Positions 2-16,426 of a stretch of DNA of 20,000 nucleotides are shown here, piece after piece; within the stretch, counting starts at the first letter, position 1, and every line of letters starts with the position of its first letter. The position numbers and the translations under genes are program-made. The stretch is from an uncultured virus (IMG/VR IMGVR_UViG_3300028283_000001) (lineage: Duplodnaviria > Heunggongvirae > Uroviricota > Caudoviricetes). The stretch lies in the IMG/VR virus record IMGVR_UViG_3300028283_000001; one strand, 5' to 3'. Below the pieces are notes generated by a model. That model made no database searches. It was not told where the DNA came from and saw nothing but the letters and a program-made list of their open reading frames with translations.

Positions 2-85
2 AAGGAATTAGAGGAAAAGGAAAGACAATTGAAGGCGAACGTTGCGTTATTGGAATGTGAATTTCAAAAATTGGAGGTGGGCTAA
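2..85 (+). CDS. 3' end of a coiled-coil protein (partial)
   Basis: Open frame KELEEKERQLKANVALLECEFQKLEVG*. Its TAA overlaps the next ATG (TAATG). Confidence 0.55.
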   Translation, partial: KELEEKERQLKANVALLECEFQKLEVG

Positions 86-1525: not shown

Positions 1526-1700
1526 TTGGGTTGAATTAGAAGGGGTGGTTAATGCAGAAACGGCGGATGCTATTTTAGTTGATTTTGGCGGGCAAGAGGA
1601 ATGGGTTCCTAAATCACAATGTATAGATTTTCCTGATGTTGGCGATTTTGGAACATTGTTTGTTCGTGAATGGCTTGCATATAATCGGGGGCTAATATGA
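1512..1700 (+). CDS. Small phage beta-barrel (SH3-like) protein
   Basis: ETADAILVDFGGQEEWVPKSQC matches the common phage ETxKAxL...W(I/V)PKS pattern. Confidence 0.7.
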   Translation: MASHDWVELEGVVNAETADAILVDFGGQEEWVPKSQCIDFPDVGDFGTLFVREWLAYNRGLI

Positions 1701-1912
1701 GCGGTTCGATGGAAACGCAACTTATTTTTGAGAATCAGAAAAAGGAGGATTCTACATGGAGAGAAGCCCTTTATACCAAATTTTTACTGATGGCGAAAGG
1801 GTGTCCGTGCAGATCAAAAAGTGCCTGGACACAAGGTCAGTGTGTAATATTCAACGACGCTTGCGGCGATATGGAGCGTTGTCCCTTTGTTTACTGGGGT
1901 GGCTTGCGTTGA
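1697..1912 (+). CDS. Small Cys-rich hypothetical protein
   Basis: ATGA overlap with upstream gene. CPC...C...C...CPF cysteine pattern. Confidence 0.6.
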   Translation: MSGSMETQLIFENQKKEDSTWREALYTKFLLMAKGCPCRSKSAWTQGQCVIFNDACGDMERCPFVYWGGLR

Positions 1913-2023
1913 TGCCAGCTCAACAAACAGGAGATTCAGTAATTTCAAATCCTGATAAGTCATTGATCCTTGTAGAAGGGGGGATGCTTTGGATCCCTAT
2001 AACAGAAATGGAGGAAATATTTA

Positions 2024-2347
2024 ATGCCACTTCAAACATATCGGATAATCGACCAAAACGGCAAGTGTCTCGGAACGGCACACCTACAAAAAGATTGCGA
2101 CGTATTGCTGCGGCCCGGTGACTGTTCTTCATATCGGGATAGCGTACAGGCAGTTGTAGCAGAAAAGACTGCGATGGAGCAACGGGTTTCCGCTATAATT
2201 GAAGCGGAGATTAAAGCATTCGAGCAATCGGTGCGGATTCCAATCAAGACCATTTCTGTCCAGATGATTGTAGTGGAGGGGACATCTTTTACCGTGGAGA
2301 ACAAAGTCATCCAGGTAAAGGTGGGATTAGACCTCGACGCGCTTTGA
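2024..2347 (+). CDS. Hypothetical protein
   Basis: GGAGG RBS upstream, 107-aa ORF. Confidence 0.6.
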   Translation: MPLQTYRIIDQNGKCLGTAHLQKDCDVLLRPGDCSSYRDSVQAVVAEKTAMEQRVSAIIEAEIKAFEQSVRIPIKTISVQMIVVEGTSFTVENKVIQVKVGLDLDAL

Positions 2348-2370
2348 CGGTTTGTTGATGGAGGGTGAAA

Positions 2371-2571
2371 ATGGAAGAAGACCAACTGGCTAAATACTCA
2401 CCGTTTTGCTCATTTTGTGGCGGGAGGCAGAATGAAGTGGAGATGCTGATTGTAGGTGGGGCTGGTACAATCTGTTCTGGATGTGTGGAGATATGCTCTG
2501 AACTTATAAAAGAGAAAAGGAGGCTTAAAATTGAAGCTAAAAGAAATGAACAGGCTGAACAAACGGATTGA
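2371..2571 (+). CDS. Stand-alone ClpX C4-type zinc-finger protein
   Basis: CSFCGGRQNEVEMLIVGGAGTICSGCVEIC matches the ClpX N-terminal zinc-binding domain (CSFCGK..EV.KLIAG....IC.ECV..C). GGAGGG RBS; GTG 2365 is an alternative start. Confidence 0.85.
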   Translation: MEEDQLAKYSPFCSFCGGRQNEVEMLIVGGAGTICSGCVEICSELIKEKRRLKIEAKRNEQAEQTD

Positions 2572-2677
2572 GGCTAACGCTTTTATAACTCCGGTGTTGA
2601 ATGTTACGCCAGCCGGGCGCACCAGCACGGAGCGAAACCGGGTAAAGCGGGTAGCACGGAGATTGAGAGGAAAATAA
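2546..2677 (+). CDS. Small basic hypothetical peptide (43 aa, MNRLNKRIEAN...RVARRLRGK)
   Basis: Hand-translated ORF filling the gap before the first tRNA-like element. Weak RBS. Confidence 0.35.
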   Translation: MNRLNKRIEANAFITPVLNVTPAGRTSTERNRVKRVARRLRGK

Positions 2678-2680
2678 CAG

Positions 2681-2747
2681 TTTGCGCTTGCGGCGTGGTG
2701 GAACTGCCTGGAATCATGATCCAGTTCGAATCTGGGGCAAGCGCAAA
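2681..2747 (+). ncRNA. Truncated tRNA-like element (CAT loop; tRNA-Met-like pseudogene or mimic)
   Basis: 11-bp terminal stem TTTGCGCTTGC/GCAAGCGCAAA, hairpin CTGGA-ATCATGA-TCCAG, and T-loop TTCGAAT. Too short for a canonical tRNA and no CCA. Confidence 0.6.
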
Positions 2748-2749
2748 AC

Positions 2750-2818
2750 AAACAGGTCGTAGCATACGGTAATGCCGGAGAGTTGAAATGTATGCAGATC
2801 ACAGGCCGGAACCTGTTT
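2750..2818 (+). ncRNA. Putative structured RNA, possibly a degenerate tRNA-like element
   Basis: 8-bp closing stem AAACAGGT/ACCTGTTT, D-arm-like TA-GCA-TACGGTAA-TGC, and an alternative GCATAC/GTATGC pairing. Confidence 0.35.
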
Positions 2819-3151
2819 TATTGGCAAAGGAGAACTACAATGCAAACCCGACAATTCCACCAATGGCCCCGTAAGGCAGAGGCCCTTACACCGGGGAAAA
2901 TAAAACGATCCAGCCCTTACAACTAAATGGATCACTTCAGCCATAGAGAATTCCAAAGTTCCGGATATCGCTCAATCAGGAGCAGGCAAAGGGAGGATAA
3001 ATGAACGGGAAAGGCGATGGCAAAGAACGATTTAAACTATCTTCTATATATTTAAAATAACCTTTATTTTGTTTTACTCGGCTTCGGCTGAAAACTGTAA
3101 TATTTCTTGTGCGAAAGCCAGCACCGTGGAATTCCAGAAACAGGCTTGACG

Positions 3152-3167
3152 GCCCGGAGAGACGGGC
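3152..3167 (+). promoter_or_regulatory. boxB-like GC hairpin with purine-rich loop
   Basis: GCCCG-GAGAGA-CGGGC immediately before the RBS of ORF 3184. Confidence 0.4.
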
Positions 3168-3183
3168 AAAGGAGAACTGAGAA

Positions 3184-3375
3184 ATGGGTCAAGAAATTAC
3201 AAATAAGATAAATCCTGAAATTGGGAAAATGAATTGGAAGGCATGCGAATACTGCAAAAACCAGGCCGGCCCAAAAGGTTGCAACTCATTTGCTTGCTTC
3301 GAGGATTTAATTGAATACGAAGAAAAAAATGGAATTATTATTTGTTCTTATTTTGTAGAAAAGGAATTGGCATAA
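3184..3375 (+). CDS. Small Cys-rich hypothetical protein
   Basis: AGGAGA RBS. CEYC...C...C...C pattern. Confidence 0.65.
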   Translation: MGQEITNKINPEIGKMNWKACEYCKNQAGPKGCNSFACFEDLIEYEEKNGIIICSYFVEKELA

Positions 3376-3378
3376 CTT

Positions 3379-3596
3379 ATAGCGGGTGGCGGAATTAGAC
3401 GCGACCGTCAATTAAGTAGATGGAGAATGATGCTCCGACACGTTGGAATAATCGACCAGTAGGGAATTGATGATAATGGCTTAGGCTAAGAGTAAACTCA
3501 CGATGGGTAAAGCCAAGTAGACCGAAATGAGACGCCTTGTAAGGGAGATTTTAAACTCTGGGAATCCATTCCAGGTATTGAATCCTGGCTCGCTAT
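3379..3596 (+). ncRNA. tRNA-like RNA with a ~167-nt structured insert replacing the anticodon/variable arms
   Basis: Acceptor-like stem ATAGCGGG/CTCGCTAT, Leu-like D arm TG-GCG-GAATTAGA-CGC, T-like arm CCAGG-TATTGAAT-CCTGG. Fills an intergenic gap. Confidence 0.7.
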
Positions 3597-3625
3597 TTTA
3601 AGTTGATGAATCACAAGGAGGTATA

Positions 3626-3805
3626 ATGTCAAAAGGACTTGAGTTAAAATATTTTGTGCTGAAACCGAATGGAGACAATGCCTATGCCGAAGCAAGCAGG
3701 GCAGCATTAAAGAAGTATGCAATTAAAATCAGACCCACAAACGTGGACTTGGCCAATGATATTGAATCCTGGCTATCCGCCCTAAAAGGAAAGGAAATCC
3801 AATGA
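3626..3805 (+). CDS. Small phage protein (59 aa, MSKGLELKYFVLKPNGDNAYAEASRAALKKYA...)
   Basis: Hand-translated and absent from the ORF track. AAGGAGGT RBS and ATGA overlap with the next gene. Confidence 0.8.
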   Translation: MSKGLELKYFVLKPNGDNAYAEASRAALKKYAIKIRPTNVDLANDIESWLSALKGKEIQ

Positions 3806-4083
3806 AAAGTATAGTTAAAATAAAGGCGTTAGCAGAAGAAATTATTCGATGTAATGAGCAACTTGATAGGTTTGTAATATTTGATTATCCTGCATCTGAT
3901 GAAACTACAAGTTCTGGAGGAGAGCCTTCTCCAATTAATATTGTGCTTGAAGGCCCATGCGCTCATATAAAGATACATGGTTTATCCAGAATCGAACTTG
4001 ACTGTATGAGATCTACACTTAATTCAATTCTTCAAGAACGTAAAAGAGTTGCAACGGAAGAACTTAACAAACAATTTTCTTAG
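3802..4083 (+). CDS. Hypothetical protein
   Basis: AAGGA RBS, coupled start. Confidence 0.65.
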   Translation: MKSIVKIKALAEEIIRCNEQLDRFVIFDYPASDETTSSGGEPSPINIVLEGPCAHIKIHGLSRIELDCMRSTLNSILQERKRVATEELNKQFS

Positions 4084-4106
4084 GTTTGGCATCAAAAGGA
4101 AATCCA

Positions 4107-4370
4107 ATGACCGATGACACAACAGTAAAAACAGATAGAGATATTGCAATCGAAGTGAACAAAAGGCTGGATGCGCTTGAAAAAGAAGTTGAGCGGCTGA
4201 AAAGAAAATTTACGGATCTGAAAGATATTCACTATTCAATTCAAGCGTCAATTTGGATTGTTGGGGCATTATTATTTAGAAGTATCAATCATGATTCTCC
4301 TATATGTTGGTTATTGGCAGGCATTGGAGTGGTTTGGTTTATTTTATCCCTGTTAGAAAAAGAAAGGTAA
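4107..4370 (+). CDS. Coiled-coil protein with two C-terminal transmembrane segments
   Basis: Start moved to ATG 4107 after AAGGA. Hydrophobic segments SIWIVGALLF and ICWLLAGIGVVWFILSLL. Confidence 0.65.
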   Translation: MTDDTTVKTDRDIAIEVNKRLDALEKEVERLKRKFTDLKDIHYSIQASIWIVGALLFRSINHDSPICWLLAGIGVVWFILSLLEKER

Positions 4371-4375
4371 ATCAA

Positions 4376-4612
4376 ATGAAACTTTGTATATTTAATGAAC
4401 CAGAAAAAACAGAACCTGTAGTATTTGTAAAACTTGAGAGTTATTTAGATGACGTACATTTGGTAGTATGTGATGCATCTGGTGTTACTGTAATAGGCAG
4501 TAATATTCTAAGGATTTCCAGCAACGGAACATTAATACGATTTATAGACATTGATAAAGAACTTGGTTTTCAACTCGATGAAGAGGGCAGAATTAAATTA
4601 GCGGGAGAATAA
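4376..4612 (+). CDS. Hypothetical protein
   Basis: Start moved to ATG 4376 after AAAGGT. Confidence 0.7.
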   Translation: MKLCIFNEPEKTEPVVFVKLESYLDDVHLVVCDASGVTVIGSNILRISSNGTLIRFIDIDKELGFQLDEEGRIKLAGE

Positions 4613-4651
4613 AAATGTGCTGTTGTGGCCCATAAAGAAAGGGAAATTAAA

Positions 4652-4810
4652 ATGGATGTTCTCAGTGAATACGCAATAATAGTTTATGTAGCAACGGTAT
4701 TCATAGGACTCATTGGAGTTATTCTGATGTTCAAAATTATGTCAATCAAAAGCGATATTGAATTTCTTGAGTATTTGATAAAAGAGATTAGGCGCTGTGT
4801 CAACAGATAG
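4652..4810 (+). CDS. Small single-TM membrane protein
   Basis: AIIVYVATVFIGLIGVILMF hydrophobic stretch. AAGGGA RBS before ATG 4652. Confidence 0.55.
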   Translation: MDVLSEYAIIVYVATVFIGLIGVILMFKIMSIKSDIEFLEYLIKEIRRCVNR

Positions 4811-4971
4811 TGAAATATACGAAGCAGCAATACCCGATTGTTGCCAATTTCAGACCTACCGGGAACATCACGACTGGCTCATGCTTTGTTGGGGGCTTTT
4901 AAGCGCAATAAATGAACAAGAACCAATGGATTGTGGAATGTGCGAGTTTGCAACAAGAAAGGAGAAATAAT

Positions 4972-5316
4972 ATGGAACCAGCCCCGAAAGAAAAAGAGGG
5001 AAAGGACCGATGGCATATCTTCCCATTTAGGGAATGCCGCGAAGTGCTGAAGGCGTTTGAGTTTGGGGTGCAGAAGTATGGGAAGCCCTTCACTTATCGC
5101 CAGGGCGATGGACTGCCTCAGGAGGATATGTTTGATGCAACTATGCGGCATTTGGAACAGATCCAGGCGGGGGAGCACTCTGCGGCGGATTCCAATTGCC
5201 TTCATTGGGCCCATATTGCGGCTGATGCATTGATGGCTATCACAAGAGAATTGAAAGAACGGGAGGCGGAAAGAAATGCAATGAGTGCAGCTTCTTTAGA
5301 AATAGATAGAAAATAA
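4972..5316 (+). CDS. dATP/dGTP diphosphohydrolase-like (DUF5664) domain protein
   Basis: K..GK.RW..FP...EV..FG..KYG...Y..G...A..RH.....GE....S...H.AH pattern. AGGAGA RBS before ATG 4972. Confidence 0.85.
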   Translation: MEPAPKEKEGKDRWHIFPFRECREVLKAFEFGVQKYGKPFTYRQGDGLPQEDMFDATMRHLEQIQAGEHSAADSNCLHWAHIAADALMAITRELKEREAERNAMSAASLEIDRK

Positions 5317-5367
5317 CATTTAATTTTATCCTACCTTATAGATTGTTCCCTCAGTATTAAAAAATCC

Positions 5368-5417
5368 TTTACTTCCTCTAAAAAGATAGATTATAGTTGA
5401 TCTACGATCAACTATAA
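5368..5417 (+). promoter_or_regulatory. Candidate promoter for the packaging operon with an overlapping 12-bp perfect inverted repeat
   Basis: TTTACT-18 nt-TATAGT. Inverted repeat TTATAGTTGATC-tac-GATCAACTATAA at 5391-5417. Confidence 0.5.
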
Positions 5418-5439
5418 CATCACAAAAAAAGAAATCATT

Positions 5440-6126
5440 ATGTTTAGTGCTGAAGAAATTCCTCGGATTCGAAGGCGTTCATTGCCGATGTTGCCACCCT
5501 CCGTTCTTCAACGGCAAAGGGGGGAAAGGATTTGCCCAGCGCGCAATCAGAACGGTCAGCTTACATTAAAGGAAGCGTTGTTTGTTAGGGCCATCTGCTG
5601 TTGCCCCGAAGATCCCACGTTTGATAACATGTGTGCCGCCATGCGCAAGGCTGGTTATAATGGTAAGCACGTGGGGGTGGCTGCGTATGAGTTGATGAAG
5701 AAACCAAAGATCGCCAATGCAATAGAAAAATATCGTCAAAATATTATGCAAGAATTTGATATCACACCAAAAAAAGTATTGCAAGAAATAGCGGCTACCG
5801 CATTTAGCGATTTCGGTGATTTTTATAATAATGACGGTACCCTAAAGAACTTAAAGCGACTCTCAAAGGCTGCTAGAGTCGCTTTGCATGGGGTTGATAT
5901 TCAGTATGGATTGAATTCTGATGGAATTCCAGCAGTAACACAAAAGATTAAGTTGCATGATAAGTTAAAAGGGTTAGAATTATTGGGTAAATATCATAAG
6001 CTGTTTACTGATAACGTGAATATCACTAATTTGGATTCTGACATCACGCAGGATGAACGGGCGGCGCAAACAAGGAGCCGATTATTGGCTGAGCTTTCAA
6101 ACGATAAGGATGATGGAGGCGAATGA
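5440..6126 (+). CDS. terS: Terminase small subunit
   Basis: LT.KE..FV...AA.RKAGY...AYELMKKPKI, V..E...AF.D and KIKLHDKLKGLELLGKY..LF motifs. Directly upstream of TerL. Confidence 0.92.
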   Translation: MFSAEEIPRIRRRSLPMLPPSVLQRQRGERICPARNQNGQLTLKEALFVRAICCCPEDPTFDNMCAAMRKAGYNGKHVGVAAYELMKKPKIANAIEKYRQNIMQEFDITPKKVLQEIAATAFSDFGDFYNNDGTLKNLKRLSKAARVALHGVDIQYGLNSDGIPAVTQKIKLHDKLKGLELLGKYHKLFTDNVNITNLDSDITQDERAAQTRSRLLAELSNDKDDGGE

Positions 6127-7655
6127 CCGCATTATCTCTTATAGATTTTTGGCGCATAAGAAGGCGACATGAAGGGTTGAAAACAATCGTGCGCCCATGC
6201 CATCACACTATTGCTGAAGCATTAACACATTTAATGCTGGGCAAGCTCTCCACTCCTAACCTTATGATATTGCAACCTCCACGTACGGGCAAATCAGATC
6301 TTTTGCGTGCGTTTCAAGAATGGGCGTTTTCATACTTTCCAGACTCAGAATTTATTGATGCGGCTTACGGCACGGATCTTGCCACGAAGATGTGTGAAGA
6401 CACCCGGACAACCTTGTCGGCATCTTGGTATAGAGATTGTTGTGATTCTACTTGGGGCGCACATGTGGCGTCAAGGGGGGCAAGCGTAGGAGGAAGAAAA
6501 GATTACTTTCACACTGTAGAAGGCGGCAGCGTGAAGGCGGTGGGTAGTGGAACGGGGTCTTTGGGTTTTGGGGCAGGAAAGTTACGACCAGAGTTTGGCG
6601 GGGCGGTTTTGATAGATGATCCTTTGAAGCTACAGGATGCCACTTCTGTAGCGGTGAGAAAAAGCACTGTTGAATGGATTCATGGGGCATTAGAATCCAG
6701 ACGGAACAGGAAAAAAGATCCTATGACCCCATTGGTTCTTGACATGCAAAGATTACATCCACAAGACCCTGCTGGTCATCTTTTGTCTACAGAGCGTCAC
6801 CGGTGGACGGTGATCCAAGTTCCTGCACATGATGAAAACAATCAATCTATTTGGCCTGCTCGGATTAGTATGAATGAGCTTGAACACCTTAAAATATATG
6901 ATCTTGATACGTACCTTTCTCAGTACATGCAATCACCATCTACCACCGCGTACGAATTATTAATATCTGATTGGTGGCGATTTTGGGTTGATAGAAGTGA
7001 AGTGGAGAAACGCATTACCCTGAAGTTGATCACCGCTGATACCGCTTTTAAAGAAGGGGATAGCAACGATTACAGTGTTTTACAATGTTGGGGGTGTTTA
7101 GGAGTAGGCGGAATGGTTCTTCTTGATCAGGTTCGGGGCAAGTGGGATTTTCCTGATTTATGTAAAGAGGCCATAGATTTTTTGAAGAAGCATCGACAGC
7201 CGATCCCCGGCATCACCCCTGTGACGGAGTGTTGGGTAGAAGACCGGGCCAGTGGAACTTCTCTTGTGCAAACACTTCGAAAGGCTGGGCTTCCTTTTCG
7301 ACAATGGCTCCCTCCGCATGCTGATCAAAAACTGATTGATGGAAGCCAGGTTTTATCAGGCCCGGATAAGGTGAGCCGAGTAAAGCAGAGCAGTATGACA
7401 ATTAAGCCTGGTAGAATCTTTTTACCCTGGCCAGGACTTTCTGATTGCCGTTGGGTGGAGGGGCTGGTTAATGAGTGCATGTCTTTTAGTAATGATGATT
7501 CTCATCTTTATGATGATCAGGTGGACGCAATGACCATGGCTAACCTTATTTGGCAACAACGGGGCGGGGGCGTAGGGGCCATTTCAGTTGTTCGGAGTAA
7601 CGGGTGGCAAGATTGGTTGCATCGGAACGAACAGCATTGGAGGAAAGCCGCATAA
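6123..7655 (+). CDS. terL: Terminase large subunit
   Basis: Walker A PPRTGKS, Walker B LIDDP, MQRLH coupling motif, RNase H-like nuclease motifs DTAFK...DYSV and DDQVDAMT. Confidence 0.97.
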   Translation: MTALSLIDFWRIRRRHEGLKTIVRPCHHTIAEALTHLMLGKLSTPNLMILQPPRTGKSDLLRAFQEWAFSYFPDSEFIDAAYGTDLATKMCEDTRTTLSASWYRDCCDSTWGAHVASRGASVGGRKDYFHTVEGGSVKAVGSGTGSLGFGAGKLRPEFGGAVLIDDPLKLQDATSVAVRKSTVEWIHGALESRRNRKKDPMTPLVLDMQRLHPQDPAGHLLSTERHRWTVIQVPAHDENNQSIWPARISMNELEHLKIYDLDTYLSQYMQSPSTTAYELLISDWWRFWVDRSEVEKRITLKLITADTAFKEGDSNDYSVLQCWGCLGVGGMVLLDQVRGKWDFPDLCKEAIDFLKKHRQPIPGITPVTECWVEDRASGTSLVQTLRKAGLPFRQWLPPHADQKLIDGSQVLSGPDKVSRVKQSSMTIKPGRIFLPWPGLSDCRWVEGLVNECMSFSNDDSHLYDDQVDAMTMANLIWQQRGGGVGAISVVRSNGWQDWLHRNEQHWRKAA

Positions 7656-10160
7656 ATGCTAAAAAATACATTGACTCCACAATTCACTCGTAAATCACGG
7701 GTTCAAAATGCTTCTTTCGCCTCTTCTATTAATGGGGCATTAGGAGAGGGGGATAGAGGCGCTTTTCAACGAGTCCCTGCTATTACTGGAAACCCATACG
7801 AATTTCAGAACTATCTTGACCGCTGGCGGCAGTATTGCCATCTGTATGAAATCTGTTGGGAAGCCCGTAAAATAGTCCGTATCCCTGTGGAGGACGCATT
7901 ACGAAAAGACTGGGAAATAGAGAATATTCCAGAGGGGATTACCAAAATACTTCGTAAGGAAGAAAAGAAGTTTAAGTTCCGTGATTCCCTTGCCCGTGCA
8001 TGGATGCTGGAGCGGTTATTGGGAGGGTGTATACAGTTTTTTGGCCTGGAGCAGAATACAGATGATGTTTCTAAGCTGTACCAACCATTACTGGGAATGT
8101 CAAAGCTGCGGTTTATCAATGTTATCCCTGTCAGCAGAATCTCCCGTGTAAATTGGGAGACTGACCCCCTGAAGATAGGCTATATGCGGCCTAACGAGTT
8201 CATAATTAATGGGCATAATATGCATATCAGCCGGTGTATTCTGTGGGATGGAGAACCGCTGTTCGACCCATATGATTTCGCTCTTACTCAGTTCAGGGCG
8301 AACCTGGCGGGATTTGGGCCCAGTAAACTTGCTCCTATATGGGATGATATCGTAAAGGCTGTAGGTACCAGGCAGGCTGCATATCAACTTATCCAAACCA
8401 ATAATGCTCTGATAATGGCCGTCAGCCAGTTGCAGGATCTTGTGGGGACCAACCCCGGAAAGGCAAAGCTGGCAGAACTAAAAGAGATCACCAAACATTT
8501 ATCCCTTTATCGAGCGGCCATTATAGATAAGGAAAAAGTTACGATTAGTCAGCAGTCCGCAGCCTTTGGCAGTGTTCCGGAATTGCTGATGACATTCTTA
8601 CAAGTCTTATCGGCCGCTTCCGACATACCGGCCACCCGGTTTCTGGGGCAGGCCCCCGGTGGGCTGAACGCCACAGGAGAAAGTGATTTGGAGAATTACT
8701 ATAATGTGGTGGATGCCATGCAGCGGCAGAAACTGGAACCTGCCATTCGACAATTTTATGATATCCTCGGGTATCATAAGTGGCCAGACAGCTGGGGGAG
8801 AATCCGGGAAGACCTGGAGATCAAGTTTCCACCCCTTTGGAATATCAATGAGCTGGAAGAAGCACAAAAGAATCAAATCGAGATTGCCAATGTTATGCAG
8901 TGTTGGGAAGCGGGGGTTTTGCCTGATGAAAAGTTGGTTGAGGAGCTTAATCTGAAACAGGTTTTTTCCTGTGACTTGGACGAGAAAGATATTGACCTGA
9001 TGAAGTCCATGCAGGATGATTCTGGTTTTTATGGGGCTGATCAGGGGGTTGATTCTTCTGAGGAGAGACGCAGGCAGACTGCTGCGACGCGTTCGGCTGG
9101 GGGTCAAGGGGGTTATAAGGGTGAAGGTGAGGGGGAGAAACCTGCGACCGCTGAGGGGCCACCCCTTAAAAAACCACCTTTGTCTAAAATTGGGAACAAA
9201 GCCGAATTTAAAGAAGAAGAACACCCACGGGCTGATGATGGTAAGTTTGGTTCTGGGGCGGGTGAAGCTTCTGTGACAGATAAAAAACCAAAGCCTGCTA
9301 AAATGTCTGACGAAGAAAAGAATCAACAGAAGGAAGAACAATTTCAAGAGTTGTTGGCGACTAAAAACCCGCATGATCAAGAAGCCTTTAAAAAGGCACA
9401 AACATTAGGGATAAATGTTCAGCCCGCTTGGACAGATGTGTGGGTAAACGATGATCCTAACGCTGATATTTTAGCTTTGGGCCGCGATAAGAAAGGAAAA
9501 TTGCAATATACCAGGAGTGCAGCAGCCTCCAAACGGGCTGAAATTAAAAAGTATAACCGCTTACGAGATTTTAGTAATGATTATGCGGGAATTATGAATG
9601 CTGTTGATAAAGATTTTTATCGGTCTGTTGAATCTCAAGTTCTTTATTTGATTAGCAAAACGGGTTTCCGCGTGGGCGGGGAAGAAGGTTCCACGGCGGC
9701 TGAAGAGCAAGCATATGGGGCATCTACACTGACTTCTGATATGGTGAAGATAGACGGTGATGTTATTCAGTTTACCTTTACGGGTAAGCATGGGGTAAAA
9801 CAAAATCATTTGTTGACAGACCCTAAAATGGCCAATTTGCTTCGTCATAAACAGGGACAACTTTTTAACACTAATGATGCAAAAGTTTTAAAGTATATGA
9901 AAAAAACAAGCGGTAAGGATTACTTGACGAAAGATTTAAGAACTTATGTTGGGACAAAGACCGCCCTGGTTGCAATAGAAAAGATGGACACCCCCGTGGG
10001 GGAAAAGGCAATTAAGAAGGCCATGATGGAAGTGGCTAAAATTGTGAGCGCTAAATTAGGCAATGCCCCTAAAATGGCGCTTGATAGTTATATTGATCCA
10101 ATGGTATTTGATCGGTGGAAGGGGTTAGCTGATGCTACAAAGCAACAACAAAAAGGATGA
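7656..10160 (+). CDS. Portal protein (DUF1073-type) fused to a C-terminal DNA topoisomerase IB domain
   Basis: aa 1-~450: W.ARKIV.IPVEDALR, SAASDIPATRFLGQAPGGLNATGESDLENYY, F.PLW. aa ~575-825: PAWTDVW, GRD.KG..QY, TGFRVG, F.GKHG, KDLRT, LGN.P...SYIDP. Single uninterrupted frame. Confidence 0.93.
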   Translation: MLKNTLTPQFTRKSRVQNASFASSINGALGEGDRGAFQRVPAITGNPYEFQNYLDRWRQYCHLYEICWEARKIVRIPVEDALRKDWEIENIPEGITKILRKEEKKFKFRDSLARAWMLERLLGGCIQFFGLEQNTDDVSKLYQPLLGMSKLRFINVIPVSRISRVNWETDPLKIGYMRPNEFIINGHNMHISRCILWDGEPLFDPYDFALTQFRANLAGFGPSKLAPIWDDIVKAVGTRQAAYQLIQTNNALIMAVSQLQDLVGTNPGKAKLAELKEITKHLSLYRAAIIDKEKVTISQQSAAFGSVPELLMTFLQVLSAASDIPATRFLGQAPGGLNATGESDLENYYNVVDAMQRQKLEPAIRQFYDILGYHKWPDSWGRIREDLEIKFPPLWNINELEEAQKNQIEIANVMQCWEAGVLPDEKLVEELNLKQVFSCDLDEKDIDLMKSMQDDSGFYGADQGVDSSEERRRQTAATRSAGGQGGYKGEGEGEKPATAEGPPLKKPPLSKIGNKAEFKEEEHPRADDGKFGSGAGEASVTDKKPKPAKMSDEEKNQQKEEQFQELLATKNPHDQEAFKKAQTLGINVQPAWTDVWVNDDPNADILALGRDKKGKLQYTRSAAASKRAEIKKYNRLRDFSNDYAGIMNAVDKDFYRSVESQVLYLISKTGFRVGGEEGSTAAEEQAYGASTLTSDMVKIDGDVIQFTFTGKHGVKQNHLLTDPKMANLLRHKQGQLFNTNDAKVLKYMKKTSGKDYLTKDLRTYVGTKTALVAIEKMDTPVGEKAIKKAMMEVAKIVSAKLGNAPKMALDSYIDPMVFDRWKGLADATKQQQKG

Positions 10161-10161
10161 A

Positions 10162-10470
10162 ATGCCAGTAACGGATGGGGACGTGTTAATGCAAGATTAT
10201 GTGCATTCGATGATCTTTCAAAACGCTGATGGCACTATATTTGATGAATCTGCAGATGGAACGGAAGCGTCGTCCCCTCAGGTTGTTATTCACAACATGG
10301 TTTCTGCCCCCGTTATTTATAACCCAGAACAGGTTATGGCAGGAATGAAGGTAGAGTTTGAGCATAACGATTTAACACAAGGGGATCCGGTTAAGATTGC
10401 AGAAATTGTTAAGGCCCATCTGGATGAGGATCCTGAATACTACACCAAACTTGAAAAGGCGGGGTTATGA
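10162..10470 (+). CDS. DUF5661-like phage head-associated protein
   Basis: GMKVEFEH...IVKAHLDEDPEYYTKL motif. Start at ATG 10162 after AAGGA (10132 is an alternative). Confidence 0.75.
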   Translation: MPVTDGDVLMQDYVHSMIFQNADGTIFDESADGTEASSPQVVIHNMVSAPVIYNPEQVMAGMKVEFEHNDLTQGDPVKIAEIVKAHLDEDPEYYTKLEKAGL

Positions 10471-10724
10471 ATTCTTTTGAAAACGGTAGGCAAAAAGCAT
10501 TGAATGCATTCAAAAAGAAAGAAGCTGAGCAGGGTTTAATTTTTGGGCGTACGTGGGAAGAGGTTCAATCAATGCAGCAAAAAACATATATTCCCAAAAC
10601 GGTTGATGTTTCCCCTGTTGGGGATTATGGTGCAGACCCATTGGGAAATGGTAAATTTAAAATGGTTCCATCTGGGGATATTGTTGACTTGGCAGAAATG
10701 AAGCGAAGGCGGGGTTATAAATAA
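10467..10724 (+). CDS. Hypothetical protein in the head module
   Basis: ATGA coupling. Its FENGRQKAL resembles FQNGRTRAL in ORF 11657. Confidence 0.7.
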   Translation: MNSFENGRQKALNAFKKKEAEQGLIFGRTWEEVQSMQQKTYIPKTVDVSPVGDYGADPLGNGKFKMVPSGDIVDLAEMKRRRGYK

Positions 10725-10725
10725 A

Positions 10726-11640
10726 ATGCCGCTTATCCTTGACATACGGCAGGCAAAAGCGCTGAAGCGGAAAAAACGGGTGAAGAAACTTCGACCTGTG
10801 AAATCCCCGGCTATGGCGCAGAAGCTGTTGCAGCAGCAAACAGAACGTCTATGGGAACAGATTATTTTCCCTTCCCTGGAGCGGATTAAACAGGCCGTGA
10901 CCAATGGGGTAGATCTTGAGCAGCTTTCCCAGCTGTTGCAGCAGGAAATGGAGCAAGCCGCGTGGATGTATGGAATGGAAACCGAACAAATTGTAGATAT
11001 GTGGAGGTTGACGGTAGATAAGTTAACCAAAATCAAGTTGAATGCTGTGCTTAACAGGTCTTTGGGTATTGATTTGACTGCGGTGCTGGATGACCCCTCT
11101 GTAGCAGAAGCCTTGGCGGTGGGAGCGTTTCAGGCGGAGGAGCTTATCAAAACCATGCCGACAAAAGTCATGGGGCAGGTTGCGCAGGCGGTAATGGCCA
11201 ATATGCGGGGGATCCCGCTACCGGAGGGGCGCAGCCTTCTTCAGCAGATAGAGTTTCTGGGCACCCGGAGTAAAAAATGGGCCCATGTTATTGCTCGTGA
11301 TCAAACTGCGAAACTCAACGCCACGCTGAATCAAACCCGGCAACAGGCGCTGGGCATTGACACTTATATTTGGCGTACGATGGAGGATTTACGGGTAGTG
11401 GGCAATCCTGCAGGGCAGTATCCTGGGTGGAATGATAAGCATATGGACCATTATGTAATGGACGGGTTATATTGCCGGTGGGATGATCCCACTGTATTCA
11501 GCACGGATGAAGGGAAGAGCTGGAGAAAGCGCACCGGAAAGATGCCAAAGAATCACCCAGCGGATGACATTCTTTGCCGCTGTTATACGGAAGCTGTGAT
11601 GGACTTGGATAAAATACTGGCGCATGCCACTGTACAGTGA
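10726..11640 (+). CDS. Minor head/morphogenesis protein (Mu gpF / SPP1 gp7 family)
   Basis: IARDQTAKLN...Q..LGI..YIWRT..D.RV...H...DG...WDDP...HP.....CRC motifs. Confidence 0.93.
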   Translation: MPLILDIRQAKALKRKKRVKKLRPVKSPAMAQKLLQQQTERLWEQIIFPSLERIKQAVTNGVDLEQLSQLLQQEMEQAAWMYGMETEQIVDMWRLTVDKLTKIKLNAVLNRSLGIDLTAVLDDPSVAEALAVGAFQAEELIKTMPTKVMGQVAQAVMANMRGIPLPEGRSLLQQIEFLGTRSKKWAHVIARDQTAKLNATLNQTRQQALGIDTYIWRTMEDLRVVGNPAGQYPGWNDKHMDHYVMDGLYCRWDDPTVFSTDEGKSWRKRTGKMPKNHPADDILCRCYTEAVMDLDKILAHATVQ

Positions 11641-11656
11641 GGGGGGTAGATAAAAA

Positions 11657-12538
11657 ATGAGTTATAATGTTATGATTTCAGATAAATCTAAACCGAATAC
11701 CGCACCGACAATGAAATTTGCTAAAGATGAAGCGGAGGCAAAAGCAATCGTTTCTCATGCAAAAGGGATGGGGTTAGAAGCTATTATGAAATTGGTAAGT
11801 AAAGATTATGATGAAAAAGCATTTATTGCTTCCAGAAAAAAATCAGAAAAACATAATAAGAAAATTAATAATGTTTTCCAAAACGCAATTATTGATTATG
11901 GTGGGGGTTACCGAGTTGCTTCAACGCCTGTTGGCTGGATTGTTTTTTATTCTGGGATTAAGGTTGGGCATGGAAATAATGAAGAGGAAGCGAAACAGGT
12001 TATTAGAGATGATAGCAAGAAAAGGTTTTTTGGTCATCCACATGAGCCTGTTGCAAATTGTGCTTTCCAAAATGGTCGCACCCGCGCACTCGATCATATT
12101 ACAAACAAGGCAGGGTTGGTTGGTGTGAAGCTGGAGAATGCGGGTGATGCGTATGAAGAAGGTGAGAATGCTGCACAGAATAATGTTTCACGAAATGCAA
12201 ATAAATACCCCAAAGGATCAGGGCAATGGAAACAATGGGATTCTGGATGGAGTAACGCAACAGGAAACAGGTTGAAAAAGAAAGTAGCAAACATGGCAAG
12301 TAAGATTGGGGTACGGGTGGAGAATGCGGCAGTGTTGTATAAAACAGAATCAAAAAGCAAAAAATTTATCATTACGGTTACGAATGATAAAGAAGGTATT
12401 ATTGAAGTAGTTAGCACAAGGGCAGATGGGTTTTATCCAACAGTAGAAGATCGAAGTAAATATACGGATGATAAGTCGAGACAACAGGTGATTACTATGG
12501 CTAAATCCTTTGCGGATAGTTTTGCAAGAAATAATTAA
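11657..12538 (+). CDS. Modular hypothetical head-module protein including an Rmf-like segment
   Basis: Lies between MuF and the protease. Repeated FQN/ENA linkers and an AYEEG...N.Y...W..GW segment. Confidence 0.75.
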   Translation: MSYNVMISDKSKPNTAPTMKFAKDEAEAKAIVSHAKGMGLEAIMKLVSKDYDEKAFIASRKKSEKHNKKINNVFQNAIIDYGGGYRVASTPVGWIVFYSGIKVGHGNNEEEAKQVIRDDSKKRFFGHPHEPVANCAFQNGRTRALDHITNKAGLVGVKLENAGDAYEEGENAAQNNVSRNANKYPKGSGQWKQWDSGWSNATGNRLKKKVANMASKIGVRVENAAVLYKTESKSKKFIITVTNDKEGIIEVVSTRADGFYPTVEDRSKYTDDKSRQQVITMAKSFADSFARNN

Positions 12539-12548
12539 GGCTAAAATC

Positions 12549-13760
12549 ATGAAAATTACAAACCAGTTTACGCCAATCGCTCCCGAGTCTCCGAAGTGGG
12601 AAAAGACTGAGGACGGCTTTCTCCGCTGCAAGGCAAGGGTATTGATGGAGACCATAATGCCTTATGGTAGAAACGAGCTTGAAGGGCTGCCAGAGGGCTT
12701 TAAAAATTCAACCGTAAATATGTACGTACCCCTTGATGAAATAGTCGCCAGTGACGCCCTGCGGTCTCTGGAGGGGATGCCTATAGTGGCTGGGGACCAT
12801 ACTTGGATGACTCCGGAACTGATATCCGATTATTCAATGGGCAATGTTTCTGGCACTCCGGTGGTAGAAGGGGGTAGTTTGATTTGTAACATTCTGGTGA
12901 CGAATCCTGAAGCCATCGCCGCTATAGAGAATGGAAAGATCGGAGAGATTTCTGCAGCCTACCGAGCAGAGACAGAATTTGTCAATGGCACGTGGAATGA
13001 ACAAACCTATGACGCAGTGCAACGGGGCTTGCGTTTCAATCATATTGCTGTGATTCCGAAAGGACACGGCCGAGGCGGAAGTGAAGTACGAATCTTAAAC
13101 AAAAAACAGGAGGACGTGAATACCATGAGTGATGAAAAGAAAAAAGTCAGAGTGAAACTCCGGAACACCGGGAAGTATGTCAATGTGGATGAGGATGTGG
13201 CTCCGGACATCGAAGCTGAGGCCGATGCGGGGGAAGCCAAAACGGCGGGTATGGATGATAAGATCAGTACCCTGGAAGGGAAGAACGCTGATCTTGAAGC
13301 TCTCCAGGCAGAGATTGAGGAACTGAAAGGGGAGCTGTCCGTGTACAAAGAGAAACTGGATCAGCTGCTCTCAGAGGAATCTGTTGAAGCTGCGGCTGAA
13401 GGCATGGTGGCAGAAACGGGCGAGGCGGAAGATATTGTGGAAAATGCCATTCCTGAGCCTGAAGAGGAAGACAAGAAAAAGGAAGCCACCGAGTTCAAAA
13501 ACGCCCTGCGCAAACTTCACGGCACCAAACTCCACAATGCTGTTCTTACGGCCATCGGAGTGAAAACGGAAGGGATGTCACCGGAAGCCATGCGGGGCGC
13601 TTTTAAGGCTCAGCACCAGATCTGCAACGCCATGAAGGGCAAAGTGGCGGCAAAGGTGGTTTCTGGGACCAAAATGATTCAGAATGCCGGCATGCCTGGT
13701 GATCAGGTTCCCGCGCAGCGGACCAATTTGGAGCGGCTGGGTTTTCGAGCAGTGAAGTAA
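12549..13760 (+). CDS. DUF2213-type prohead protease with C-terminal scaffold
   Basis: T.DGFL, SLEGMPI...H, EISAAY and NHIAVI..G.GRGG..VRI motifs, then an acidic coiled coil. Start moved to ATG 12549. Confidence 0.88.
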   Translation: MKITNQFTPIAPESPKWEKTEDGFLRCKARVLMETIMPYGRNELEGLPEGFKNSTVNMYVPLDEIVASDALRSLEGMPIVAGDHTWMTPELISDYSMGNVSGTPVVEGGSLICNILVTNPEAIAAIENGKIGEISAAYRAETEFVNGTWNEQTYDAVQRGLRFNHIAVIPKGHGRGGSEVRILNKKQEDVNTMSDEKKKVRVKLRNTGKYVNVDEDVAPDIEAEADAGEAKTAGMDDKISTLEGKNADLEALQAEIEELKGELSVYKEKLDQLLSEESVEAAAEGMVAETGEAEDIVENAIPEPEEEDKKKEATEFKNALRKLHGTKLHNAVLTAIGVKTEGMSPEAMRGAFKAQHQICNAMKGKVAAKVVSGTKMIQNAGMPGDQVPAQRTNLERLGFRAVK

Positions 13761-13815
13761 AAGATCGTAACAACGCTGTTTTTGATAATAAAAAATACAC
13801 AGGAGGACTTAAACA

Positions 13816-14442
13816 ATGAGTTTTGCAAGTGGATATAGAGGAAATGTACTTGGGTCGGTGCAGACCACCTATTCGGATCAGCCCGGTGTAGCGCTGCCGG
13901 GGATGCTGGCTTTTGCCAGTGATGATAATTTTATGGATGCCATGTTCATCGGGGAAACTCTTGGCATTGAAGCGGGCAAGGGAATCCAGGCCATTATTGC
14001 AGATGAGGGGTTGGGTTTCAATCGTCCGGGGCTTGCAGCCTATCTGCCCAACGGTGGGGAATCCGCCGCAGAGATGTACGGCATCGTTGTATTTGATCAG
14101 GCCATGCAGTCACAGGAAGACTCCGATGGCAATCCTATCAATGGATGGGCAAAGGGCCGAGTGGCTCGGGTGCTTCGACCTGGTCGTGCCGGCGGGCGTA
14201 TTTATGTGAAGGCCAAAGACGATATCGTACCCGGTACTTCCACAGTGAACTGGGTCACCACCGCAGGGTCGGATGGCATTTACGAGGCGGGTGAGTTTGC
14301 TCCTGGCGTGCTGAACAGTGGCACTGTGGGGACCACCGTGGCCATCACCAATGCGAAGTGGGTTTCCGCAGCAGCCGCAGGCGAAGTGGCTATTCTGGAA
14401 CTCTTTGGCAATGTTGTGCCGACCTTTGACGCTTCCATTTAG
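13816..14442 (+). CDS. Capsid decoration/cement protein
   Basis: Position between protease and major capsid. Gly/Ala-rich beta protein with V...GRIYV. CAGGAGG RBS. Confidence 0.7.
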   Translation: MSFASGYRGNVLGSVQTTYSDQPGVALPGMLAFASDDNFMDAMFIGETLGIEAGKGIQAIIADEGLGFNRPGLAAYLPNGGESAAEMYGIVVFDQAMQSQEDSDGNPINGWAKGRVARVLRPGRAGGRIYVKAKDDIVPGTSTVNWVTTAGSDGIYEAGEFAPGVLNSGTVGTTVAITNAKWVSAAAAGEVAILELFGNVVPTFDASI

Positions 14443-14498
14443 TTTTGTGGTGGGCAGAAGATAAAAATAAAAAAATAACTACAGGAGGATTTTATACC

Positions 14499-15470
14499 AT
14501 GGCTTATGATTTTACTACCAAAAACGATGGGGCCATAAAAGCATCGGAACTCGTCGTTAGTATTTTCGATCAGGTGGACAGTGCATTCTACGATGTTCTG
14601 TACCCTGACATCCTGTGGAGAGATAATATTCCGCAGGGATCCATTAAATCCGATATCAACCCAGGGGCCATGAATCATGTTTACCGCTCCAGGGACGTCA
14701 AGGGAATGGGGCAGTTCATCAATGGTGATGTAAAGAACATTCCGCGTGTTGGACAGTCCATTGGGCAAATCACTGTACCGATTTTGGATGCGGCCGTAGG
14801 ATGCACCATTACCGATATGGAGGCAGAGCGGTACCAGTACGGGTACAATTCCAGCCTGGCGCAGGACATCGGGGAAGTGATGCGTAGAGCCACTGATCTG
14901 CATGTGGAGCGTTGCTATTTCTTTGGTGATGCCATGGCCGGGTTTCTTTCTTATCTGGATTACCCGACCGTCACAAAAATCCCGGCAGACGCTTGGACCG
15001 GGGCAGACCCGCAAGCATGGGTCAATAGCATCAATGACGCTATTACCGCAGTGTGGGTTGCGTCAAAGAACGTGCACTTGCCCGATACCGTGAAGATGCC
15101 TCCGTCCCTGTTCAGCATGCTGTCACAGGCGTACGTTATTGGCACCTCTACTACGGGGCTGGCAGTGCCGGCGTTTGACTTTCTGCAGAAGTCTAATATC
15201 TGCACCATGGTCACCGGTAAACCGCTGAAGATCGTCCCCCTGCGTTATCTGGAAGGGGCCGGAGTAGGCGGGGCAGACCGTATCATCATCCAGGAAGATA
15301 TGGATCGGAACTTTGTGATGCCATTTCCCCTGCCGTATCAGTTGGCGCAGCCCGTGCCGGTGGCATTCGGAGTTGACACCTTTGCTCGGTATAAGTTTGG
15401 CAGCTTCAACATTCGTTACCCTGGCAGTATGGCGTATCTTGATGTTGCGCAGGCCGACTCGTCTTCCTAA
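14499..15470 (+). CDS. Major capsid protein (DUF2184-type, HK97 fold)
   Basis: 323 aa. D...YDV.YP, G.G.FI....IP.V, FGD...G.L.YP, PDT..MPP and G...RYP....Y.D motifs. CAGGAGG RBS before ATG 14499. Confidence 0.9.
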   Translation: MAYDFTTKNDGAIKASELVVSIFDQVDSAFYDVLYPDILWRDNIPQGSIKSDINPGAMNHVYRSRDVKGMGQFINGDVKNIPRVGQSIGQITVPILDAAVGCTITDMEAERYQYGYNSSLAQDIGEVMRRATDLHVERCYFFGDAMAGFLSYLDYPTVTKIPADAWTGADPQAWVNSINDAITAVWVASKNVHLPDTVKMPPSLFSMLSQAYVIGTSTTGLAVPAFDFLQKSNICTMVTGKPLKIVPLRYLEGAGVGGADRIIIQEDMDRNFVMPFPLPYQLAQPVPVAFGVDTFARYKFGSFNIRYPGSMAYLDVAQADSSS

Positions 15471-15566
15471 CCCTTTAACTCTCAGCCAAACTGGTGTAAG
15501 TCCCGGCTGAGTTGCTATGCCGGGCAAACTTTTCTTTTTAACCACGCATAAAGGAGTGTAAGAAAA

Positions 15567-16052
15567 ATGGAACGAAAATCAAAAACAGATGTAAAAGTGA
15601 AAATGCAGCGGACCAGAAAGACCCCAACCGCTATATCGGCCCCGGACCCGGCCCCCATAGTTATAATTTCATCCCCGGTTGCCCCTGTACCGAGCAAGGC
15701 ACGGCGCACGATCTATTACATAGCTAACCCTACGGCGGCGGATGTAATTTATCCCCGCCCTGGCAGGGGGGGCTTGCGGGCCACACAGATTATTTTTCCC
15801 GCTGGGAAGTCCACCGCAGTTGATGCTGCAGAATGGGCAGAAATTCGAAAAATCAGCGGCATGCGAAATTATCTGGACAATGGGATGCTTGCAGAGGTCG
15901 GAACGGAAAAGGACGTTTTAATTGTAAAGGAAGCCTCCGCAGACCCCCCTATCCCTGAGCATCTGAAAAGGGAAGGGGAAGAAGTGCATGGCAAGGCTAC
16001 AGAGGTTAAAGCATCCGTCCGGCAAAAGACCGTTACCCATATCAATGTTTAG
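15567..16052 (+). CDS. Hypothetical protein downstream of the major capsid gene
   Basis: AAGGAG RBS. Position typical of head-associated genes. Confidence 0.7.
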   Translation: MERKSKTDVKVKMQRTRKTPTAISAPDPAPIVIISSPVAPVPSKARRTIYYIANPTAADVIYPRPGRGGLRATQIIFPAGKSTAVDAAEWAEIRKISGMRNYLDNGMLAEVGTEKDVLIVKEASADPPIPEHLKREGEEVHGKATEVKASVRQKTVTHINV

Positions 16053-16070
16053 AAAGGGGTCCCCGTAATT

Positions 16071-16418
16071 ATGAAAACCATTATCAATAAAGTTACCCAC
16101 ATCAAAAAGTCCCTTCTCCCTGATGAGAAAGAATTCATCACATACTTTGACCTTATGAAATCCGTTATTGACCGGCAACCTGAGCAGGGGTTCACCACGG
16201 AGGAAATGCGGAAACGGCTCCGGGTTCTTAATGCTATTGGGGAGAAACTCCCCTTGGAGTCTGCGGATCTTGAGGATGCGGATTTTGCAACCCTACAGAC
16301 CGCATGGCAAGCGATGCGTTGGGGAATGGTCCATAAGGACATTATCGCGGTGGAGGATTATTTATCCAGCCTTTCCGCCCTTACCCCTCCTACGGCTGTA
16401 CACCCCATTAAGAGGTAG
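16071..16418 (+). CDS. Hypothetical protein
   Basis: 115-aa ORF in the operon. Confidence 0.7.
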   Translation: MKTIINKVTHIKKSLLPDEKEFITYFDLMKSVIDRQPEQGFTTEEMRKRLRVLNAIGEKLPLESADLEDADFATLQTAWQAMRWGMVHKDIIAVEDYLSSLSALTPPTAVHPIKR

Positions 16419-16426
16419 AAAAACTA

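Follow-up and report, generated by a model that had tools for sequence, protein, structure and literature searches.

A phage portal protein fused in frame to a type IB topoisomerase in the head module of an uncultured tailed virus

In a tailed virus known from lake-water metagenomes, a single gene encodes a phage portal protein joined in frame to a complete type IB DNA topoisomerase (TopIB). The gene lies in a stretch of 20,000 nucleotides (nt) from IMG/VR record IMGVR_UViG_3300028283_000001, the whole of which is called the window below. Relatives of its TopIB domain recur on several kinds of head protein and retain the catalytic residues, and a conserved motif in the linker precedes the enzyme. 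We favour, with moderate confidence, a reading in which the portal serves as an anchor through which an active TopIB enters the capsid, probably to be released and delivered together with the DNA.

A portal and a topoisomerase IB in one polypeptide

The frame at 7656..10160 on the plus strand has no internal stop across its 834 codons, and its N-terminal half is recognizable as a portal by several measures. Pfam places PF06381 (Phage_portal_3) at aa 59-410 (E 3.4e-62; 210.7 bits, cutoff 33.8) in a match that is near full length (profile positions 2-352 of 357), and the PHROGs collection assigns the same half to phrog_146 (E 1.2e-71). Five solved portals (8hds, 9b41, 8fvh, 7kln and 9jlf) match it by sequence, the best among the PDB sequences being that of Pam3 (8hds; E 3e-30 over aa 49-429). 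Judging by the structural elements of an AlphaFold2 (AF2) model, the folded portal region reaches to about aa 436. The full-length model has a predicted local distance difference test score (pLDDT) of 64.9 and consists of two folded parts; between them, aa 437-550 are of low confidence, with pLDDT below 50.

The second folded part is a TopIB. Pfam recognizes the Topoisom_I core (PF01028) at aa 627-802 (E 3.2e-16; 59.8 bits, cutoff 23.7) and the N-terminal domain Top1B_N_bact (PF21338) at aa 588-611, the latter with 27.0 bits at a cutoff of 27 and thus exactly at threshold. Among the PDB sequences, the TopIB of Deinococcus radiodurans (2f4q) matches aa 580-821 (E 3e-25), and the strings FRVG, GKHG, KDLRT, LGN and SYI align opposite the same motifs in that enzyme. 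The catalytic set (R672, K711, K759, R762, N803 and Y812) is complete. When aa 570-834 were modelled separately, from an alignment of 39 sequences, AF2 returned a pLDDT of 95.2 and a predicted template modelling score (pTM) of 0.88, with three strands (E24-28, E36-41 and E47-51 in the numbering of the domain model) ahead of a helical core. The best PDB matches to this model in Foldseek are the D. radiodurans structures 3m4a (E 4e-15) and 2f4q (E 1e-14); variola TopIB follows at a TMq of 0.75-0.76 (2h7f, 0.76), human Top1 ranks after it, and tyrosine recombinases score far lower. The 21 top rows listed (ranks 1-22, one rank unlisted) are TopIB entries throughout, and the alignments span 268-278 columns of the full-length bacterial and variola enzymes. 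By every criterion of sequence and predicted fold, the protein is thus both a PF06381 portal and a bacterial/poxvirus-type TopIB.

These results bear out the architecture given in the original prediction, which had been made from the letters of the DNA and its translated frames. It had proposed an in-frame portal and TopIB fusion in one frame of 834 aa, which the open frame and the matches to PF06381, PF01028 and PF21338 confirm, and a complete TopIB with an intact active site, on which Pfam, the 2f4q alignment, AF2 and Foldseek agree. Its residue coordinates proved correct (R672 at nt 9669, K711 at 9786, K759 and R762 at 9930 and 9939, N803 at 10062 and Y812 at 10089), as did the N-to-Y spacing of 9 residues and the presence of the bacterial TopIB motifs PAWTDVW and GRDKKGKLQY. 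The low-complexity linker that it had placed at about aa 450-575 lies close to the low-confidence interval of the AF2 model, and the topoisomerase part, taken separately as it had advised, does adopt a TopIB fold.

We also considered that the fusion might be an artefact, either of a misassembly joining two genes or of a sequencing error erasing a stop or a frameshift. The window is metagenomic, and the run that holds the region whole (X1; window positions 7400-10500 in one 13,160-bp contig with 0 differences, depth about 20) may be the window's own source sample. Other samples, however, argue against an artefact. Short contigs of the DNA library X5 and the RNA libraries X6 and X7 tile positions 8714-9538, and hence nearly the whole linker, without an indel and with a gap of 12 bases (9029-9040); the linker-to-TopIB junction, whose coverage the original prediction had wished to see checked, is bridged by X5 (9211-9432) and X7 (9245-9538). 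Uncovered stretches in these three runs carry no meaning, and the X6 and X7 contigs were not used as a sign of expression, since contigs cannot show transcription and DNA carry-over is possible. The exact 834-aa protein stands on 5 contigs in three sources, the longest of 77,089 bp. An identical ORF (open reading frame) in a further IMG/VR record (G001/L001), a 14.7-kb fragment identical over 5502 bp, was not counted as independent.

The comparative evidence is a stronger argument for a genuine fusion than contig coverage. That is, 15 other PF06381-TopIB proteins come from other assemblies, among which the closest full-length relative (P0040) is 51% identical over its full length, and one viral locus of IMG/VR (L005) is collinear with the window across the junction, identity being 57% for the portal part and 43% for the TopIB. 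We regard an artefact as extremely unlikely.

A recurring topoisomerase cassette and its border motif

The architecture recurs in metagenomes, a finding that goes beyond the original prediction, which had suggested looking for it. Searching with the TopIB part among proteins of 458-1460 aa returned 38 homologues, of which Pfam assigned 4 to PF06381, 3 to Portal_Mu (PF06074), 2 to Phage_portal (PF04860), 5 to MuF and 2 to DUF2213; other domains found among the 38 are Zeta toxin, ADP-ribosyltransferase, ParB, N6/N4 methylase, HD_4, GNAT, InPase, Acb1 and His_Phos_1. A HMMER scan of 1.84 billion representatives yielded 4320 hits (703 at E <= 1e-30). The best 150 of these include 101 proteins longer than 450 aa and 33 of 360 aa or less; the domain scan covered the other 117. 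One of the three portal families is present in 21 of the best 150, MuF in 10 and an XkdF-type protease in 1. Partner domains in the same set are InPase (13 proteins), ART-PolyVal (4), 2H (4), Acb1 (2), ADPrib_exo_Tox (2) and NUDIX (2), with single proteins each for Zeta toxin, LPD1, LPD37 and ddrB-ParB. Two proteins (P0085 and P0118) combine the TopIB with an ATP-dependent DNA ligase domain (PF01068), a pairing that suggests sealing and relaxing of incoming DNA. The enzyme occupies the extreme C-terminus in 30/39 proteins. Judged by these architectures, the clade appears to be a mobile cargo module carried by three unrelated portal families, MuF, head proteases and giant polyvalent proteins.

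The active site is conserved across these contexts. R672, K711, R762 and Y812 are kept in 179/179 relatives (28-50% identity), N803 is retained in 170 and gives way to D in 8 and to H in 1, and K759 is retained in 165 and replaced by H in 12, by S in 1 and by Y in 1. Among the 34 viral loci described below, the catalytic set is kept in all but 2, which are cut by contig ends. At this level of identity, the pattern indicates purifying selection for catalysis in every fusion context.

In a FastTree phylogeny of 177 TopIB domains (the partial domains of P0035 and P0039 were left out) different anchor types lie scattered among one another: 14 label changes are required to account for the 16 PF06381 rows, at least 9 of them forced by well-supported branches, and for all anchor labels taken together the number is 62, compared with a mean of 70.3 after shuffling. 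By this sequence comparison, the TopIB clade has been attached to head-incorporated proteins repeatedly and independently.

Viral loci carrying the enzyme were found with a multiple alignment (A2) as query, a single-protein query having matched no viral contigs. Of the 34 IMG/VR loci obtained, 6 have a portal domain and 3 have MuF within the TopIB ORF itself, and in 24/34 that ORF is a head or packaging gene or has one within two ORFs on either side, a raw count that has no background rate beside it. Relatives on viral contigs reach 33-57% identity to the TopIB. Among species-representative genomes, the closest matches (33-39% identity) are contigs of metagenome-assembled genomes, while cellular TopIBs of Bacteroidota show 24-32% identity over aa 574-818 only. 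By sequence identity, the phage-associated enzymes thus appear closer to one another than to the cellular ones.

Ahead of the TopIB domain lies a further feature that the original prediction had not noted, a motif of the pattern FxEExHPRxxDGKFGSG. It is kept in 9/9 aligned portal-TopIB fusions, G529 being invariant, and occurs elsewhere in variants such as NFNPYHDxxGRF. A strict regular expression found it in 24/179 proteins, and a hidden Markov model (HMM) gave 57 instances in 45/179, HMM counts that are partly circular because the model was trained on instances picked by the regular expression. Of the 57, 36 stop at most 45 residues short of the TopIB region or reach no more than 4 residues into it, and the remaining ones sit between other domains or at N-termini. 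The ORFs of the viral loci form a more independent test set, though one that overlaps some clusters. Here, the HMM made 23 further hits in 13 loci among 855 ORFs, 13 of them in TopIB ORFs and 10 in other head-module ORFs; the window has one occurrence. Head-module ORFs that carry the motif and lack a TopIB include L004:4934-6337, L007:8811-10049, L012:5516-6490 and L023:4505-6748, and one MuF-type protein is among such ORFs. From where it occurs, the HPRxxxGKF / NPYHDxxGRF motif seems to serve head cargo proteins in general as a border or leader signal. A literature search with the strings NPYHD, NPNHD, EHPRD and HPRDxxGKF returned unrelated papers only.

Two loci illustrate how the motif and the enzyme travel together. 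In L005, an inserted DUF5661 module and an inserted InPase separate the portal from the TopIB; exactly at the motif, the L005 protein becomes homologous to that of the window again, aa 517 of the window protein aligning with aa 760 of L005. Because homology resumes there after the insertions, and because anchor labels are scattered on the tree, we take the cassette to be mobile. In L011, an unfused PF06381 portal of 495 aa (7458-8942) is followed, after a gap of about 620 nt, by a separate 443-aa TopIB ORF (9563-10891), which matches the query TopIB part (tblastn; phrog_23460) and has the border motif at aa 13-35. By sequence, L011 is a split form of the window fusion, and since its TopIB ORF is separate, the cassette also occurs without a covalent link to the portal. 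We conclude from these alignments that motif and TopIB form a transferable cassette, free-standing or joined to different anchors, whose borders the motif marks.

Head-module context and candidate roles

The portal-TopIB gene sits in a textbook head module (Table 1), beginning at 7656 directly after the large terminase subunit gene, which ends at 7655.

Table 1. Features of the portal-TopIB gene and of the head module around it
Feature	Position (nt)	Strand	Basis or remark
Terminase small subunit	5440-6126	+	PF03592, phrog_51
Terminase large subunit	6123-7655	+	phrog_38 (E 2.4e-68), PF17289
Whole portal-TopIB gene	7656..10160	+	single ATG-started open frame, 834 aa plus stop
Portal domain PF06381, aa 59-410	7830..8885	+	Pfam, phrog_146, matches to solved portals
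Low-complexity G/E/K/P linker, aa 437-550, about 114 residues	8964..9305	+	predicted disordered
Cassette-border motif, aa 514-538, core EFKEEEHPRADDGKFGSGAG	9195..9269	+	conserved island in variable linker
TopIB module, aa 551-834	9306..10157	+	two lead helices, PF21338 beta domain, PF01028 catalytic domain
Small acidic DUF5661 protein, 112 aa	10132..10470	+	PF18905 (E 1.1e-8)
MuF-like head morphogenesis protein	10726-11640	+	phrog_324 (E 4e-38), PF04233
293-aa ORF	11657-12538	+	between MuF and protease; no Pfam or PHROG match
DUF2213 head-maturation protease with acidic coiled-coil scaffold-like tail	12510-13760	+	PF09979 (E 3.8e-30), phrog_530 (E 3.9e-47)
Cement protein	13816-14442	+	among PF22758, PF09950, phrog_264 (together with major capsid protein)
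Major capsid protein	14445-15470	+	among PF22758, PF09950, phrog_264 (together with cement protein)

The first 29 nt of the DUF5661 gene, which is read in another frame, are shared with the end of the portal-TopIB gene; it has an alternative ATG at 10162. In the L005 portal polypeptide, a DUF5661 module (aa 501-579) that shares 37% identity with the product of this gene stands in frame between portal and InPase, and the domain also lies within P0040, P0051 and P0003, just after the portal domain. The DUF5661 protein may act with the portal, as an accessory, or else with the cargo, as its partner or inhibitor. The MuF-like protein of the window has no cargo domain and no border motif. In the DUF2213 protein, residues E146, S148, Y151, N177, H178 and the string GRxG (187-190) are invariant in 7/7 homologues (alignment A3), and the invariance of S148 and H178 would fit a Ser/His protease. 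In two DUF2213 homologues (P0030 and P0035) a TopIB replaces the scaffold-like tail.

Just upstream of the terminase genes, a 134-aa protein (4912-5316, plus strand) matches the N-terminal domain only of a dATP/dGTP diphosphohydrolase (PF18909; E 1.3e-17); enzymes of this type accompany phages that replace a DNA base. Beyond the capsid gene, the interval 15567-19483 contains the genes of a tail-fibre-like protein (16427-18043) and of a lysozyme (19070-19483), along with two small unknown ORFs. Searches of the window for tRNAs and Rfam families found none, and it lacks genes for sheath, tube or tape-measure proteins. All convincing genes of positions 1-20000 are on the plus strand, GC skew is positive throughout and its cumulative curve climbs steadily, and G+C content ranges from 0.36 (4001-5000) to 0.53 (15001-16000).

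Portals are dodecamers in which the C-terminal part, a crown or barrel, points to the inside of the capsid, so that the fusion would place the TopIB within the prohead. Since a portal is built into every prohead, fusion to it would ensure that the enzyme is loaded into the head, and the number of copies could reach 12, provided that all subunits are full length; the original prediction had likewise arrived at up to twelve copies per prohead, a reasonable figure to derive from portal stoichiometry. That the TopIB is located in the head we consider likely. During head maturation, the tether of about 114 residues would then be cut near the motif, releasing the enzyme, a step for which we see roughly balanced prospects. 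A complex prediction of residues 1-215 of the DUF2213 protease with linker residues 495-575 scored 0.02 against a mark of 0.32, which weighs on neither side of the question of cleavage by this protease. Freed TopIB would exit with the DNA at infection, which we hold to be slightly less probable than the cut itself. In the new cell, and before any expression of phage genes, it would relieve the incoming genome, or the DNA of the host, of torsional stress. Enzymes of type IB remove supercoils of either sign and require neither ATP nor Mg2+.

The original prediction had named two kinds of role, relief of torsion during packaging or ejection, and clipping off and injection to act on the incoming genome, and the comparative data fit the second better than the first. 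In the former case, the TopIB would stay on the portal crown as a swivel, releasing twist from the terminase motor or from the unspooling genome. Such a role accords with the portal being the commonest recognizable anchor (21 of the best 150) and with the gain of a TopIB by three unrelated portal families; a long tether would let the enzyme reach DNA near the channel, and its independence of cofactors is established. The same clade, however, is found on MuF (10 of the best 150), on head proteases, on polyvalent proteins and in effector chains unrelated to the channel, and it is free-standing beside an unfused portal in L011, so that its job does not appear to depend on the portal channel. Moreover, most tailed phages package without any topoisomerase, and the DNA end in the capsid should rotate freely, which makes the need for a swivel less than obvious. 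We consider a swivel improbable, and less likely than injection.

An injected enzyme might instead be aimed at the host, relaxing or nicking its chromosome, plasmids or prophages and thereby disabling host functions or weakening a defence system, an explanation that shares its delivery route with the reading we favour and differs only in the target. Relatives share polypeptides with Acb1, 2H, NUDIX, ART, Zeta toxin, N6/N4 methylase and ParB-like domains, partners of a kind that the main text of Iyer et al. (2017; PMC5512222) reads as conflict effectors, and the small acidic DUF5661 gene comes next, as an immunity or inhibitor gene would. Against this, the DNA ligase fusions suggest care for DNA rather than damage, the relatives keep a full, religation-competent active site with no nick-only variant seen among them, and DUF5661 in relatives adjoins the portal, not the TopIB, and so may be a portal accessory. 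We judge an anti-host role unlikely, if less so than the swivel.

Several observations weigh against a packaged and injected TopIB, and some of them speak for an intracellular enzyme of replication or recombination, the fusion being a mere expression arrangement and the TopIB no virion component. Such an enzyme would be freed in the cytoplasm, or be active in protein that is not yet assembled, while phage DNA replicates or recombines or during late transcription. Ten of the 34 loci have no head context within two ORFs (L002, L015, L016, L019, L025, L029, L031, L032, L034 and L035), and in L025 the TopIB adjoins a helicase and a polynucleotide kinase; some members may therefore serve DNA metabolism. 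Jumbo-phage type I topoisomerases, too, are discussed among replication and recombination functions in the passages of PMC7824862 devoted to them. The head-context figure and the motif counts carry the limits given with them above, and the backbone of the tree is weak, with 80/174 inner branches under 80% support. In a tblastn search at E <= 1e-3, the TopIB domain matched only 2/50,697 deposited phage records, at 25-29% identity; no cultured phage among these records carries the cassette, and none was found that matches 80% or more of the whole protein. One of the two matches, top1E of BS162P1, lies among unannotated genes, not head genes. A TopIB that remained on the portal could not be ejected, and twelve bulky C-terminal domains might hinder portal assembly. 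A shorter portal product may also arise through an undetected mechanism; inspection by eye revealed neither a slippery heptamer (X_XXY_YYZ) in frame in the A6 run (near 9166-9171) nor a Shine-Dalgarno sequence ahead of the internal Met550. A purely intracellular enzyme, for its part, leaves unexplained the repeated independent fusion to portals, MuF and head proteases, as well as the head context in 24/34 loci and the motif common to other head-module proteins, and the presumably late expression of head genes would be poor timing for a replication enzyme. We regard an intracellular role as very unlikely.

If the enzyme is indeed loaded and delivered, it would represent an unrecognised class of phage virion enzyme that changes DNA topology at entry without ATP or Mg2+, and a bacterial-virus counterpart of the poxvirus virion topoisomerase. 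Such an activity would bear on how incoming genomes become transcribable or circular and how they cope with the nucleoid and defence systems. With fusion to the portal, both the anchor point and the copy number of the enzyme are fixed, so that the question lends itself to direct testing. Similarly, the border motif might prove a general loading or cutting signal of head cargo, usable to find or engineer cargo proteins, and the size and diversity of the clade (4320 hits) bear on the origin of bacterial and poxvirus-type TopIB.

Comparison with known systems

Among solved structures, the bacterial TopIB of D. radiodurans (2f4q/3m4a) is the best match to the C-terminal domain in both sequence and fold, and it shares the Asn at the His position and the PF21338 N-terminal domain. 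It differs in being a stand-alone cellular protein of about 346 aa, whereas the nearest 150 clusters found here are mostly fusions. Poxvirus virion TopIB (2h7f and 3igc) has the same fold and catalytic mechanism (TMq 0.75-0.76), but has His where the window protein has Asn803 and is only 19-20% identical in sequence. Vaccinia encapsidates its TopIB, which acts mainly in early transcription, according to a passage of PMC12188299 citing Shaffer & Traktman (1987) and Da Fonseca & Moss (2003). The likeness we propose is that of an encapsidated enzyme active as infection begins. In poxviruses, which infect eukaryotes, the TopIB is a core protein on its own, while loading in the present case would be via portal fusion.

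Topoisomerases of type I are also encoded by jumbo phages. Those of Motura, NCTB, phiRSL1, Lu11 and PaBG have a tyrosine-recombinase-type catalytic domain, as described in part of a 2021 article (PMC7824862) that places them among replication and recombination genes and, in that part, mentions no portal fusion. None of the five phages was matched by the TopIB domain in tblastn at E <= 1e-3, so their enzymes must be distant from that of the window. With regard to origins, Forterre and Gadelle (2009; PMC2647321) propose, in the portion of their article concerned with it, an origin of the patchily distributed bacterial TopIB in a viral group "not yet discovered". The large phage TopIB clade described here is a candidate for that group. 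The most far-reaching form of this proposal, which we put forward tentatively and consider doubtful as a whole, is that in many uncultured tailed phages a capsid TopIB is cut at the border motif and injected to reset DNA topology ahead of phage gene expression, and that its clade is the group postulated by Forterre and Gadelle.

For the mode of delivery, phage T4 offers a possible model, although its internal proteins and Alt have no sequence similarity to the window protein. These T4 proteins are loaded via a capsid-targeting sequence, which the prohead protease removes. By analogy, the motif before the TopIB might act as a short, cleaved leader that directs loading. Alt itself is packaged in the head and injected, as noted in the main text of PMC5512222.

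The MuF polymorphic toxins of temperate phages (Jamet et al. 2017; PMC5576092) are a further point of comparison. In these toxins MuF is N-terminal, whereas that place is taken by a portal in the window protein and MuF is a separate gene. The toxins carry a C-terminal toxin domain and have an immunity gene; in the window, the next gene encodes DUF5661, which in relatives lies inside the portal polypeptide. By its domain composition, the window protein is not a MuF polymorphic toxin, although MuF-TopIB relatives exist.

The original prediction had known of no characterised portal-topoisomerase fusion, and our literature search likewise found no paper on such a fusion or on a phage-packaged TopIB. 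The closest precedent lies in the polyvalent proteins of Iyer et al. (2017; PMC5512222), whose main text takes the PBECR, 2H and InPase domains fused to portal or MuF proteins for effectors that travel in the virion and are injected; to this theme, which the original prediction had not drawn upon, the architecture belongs. TopIB is absent from the domains in that main text, as are the terms "tyrosine recombinase", "integrase" and "TopoIB", and "topoisomerase" occurs once, in the reference list (the supplements are outside this statement). The correspondence is nonetheless close. Like the portal-InPase protein BcepF1.124 in that text, the window protein has a head domain and a C-terminal enzyme and is encoded among late or head genes; across the clade, TopIB shares polypeptides with InPase, ART-PolyVal, 2H and LPD domains of the same set. 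With its enzyme fused to a head-incorporated domain, and with TopIB recurring beside other effector and LPD domains, the protein fits, as far as its architecture goes, the description of a portal-fused effector. What sets it apart is the cargo, which alters DNA topology and is not a nuclease, an RNase or a nucleotide-degrading enzyme. The fusion of a portal to a TopIB appears to be new, within the known theme of effectors fused to portal and MuF proteins.

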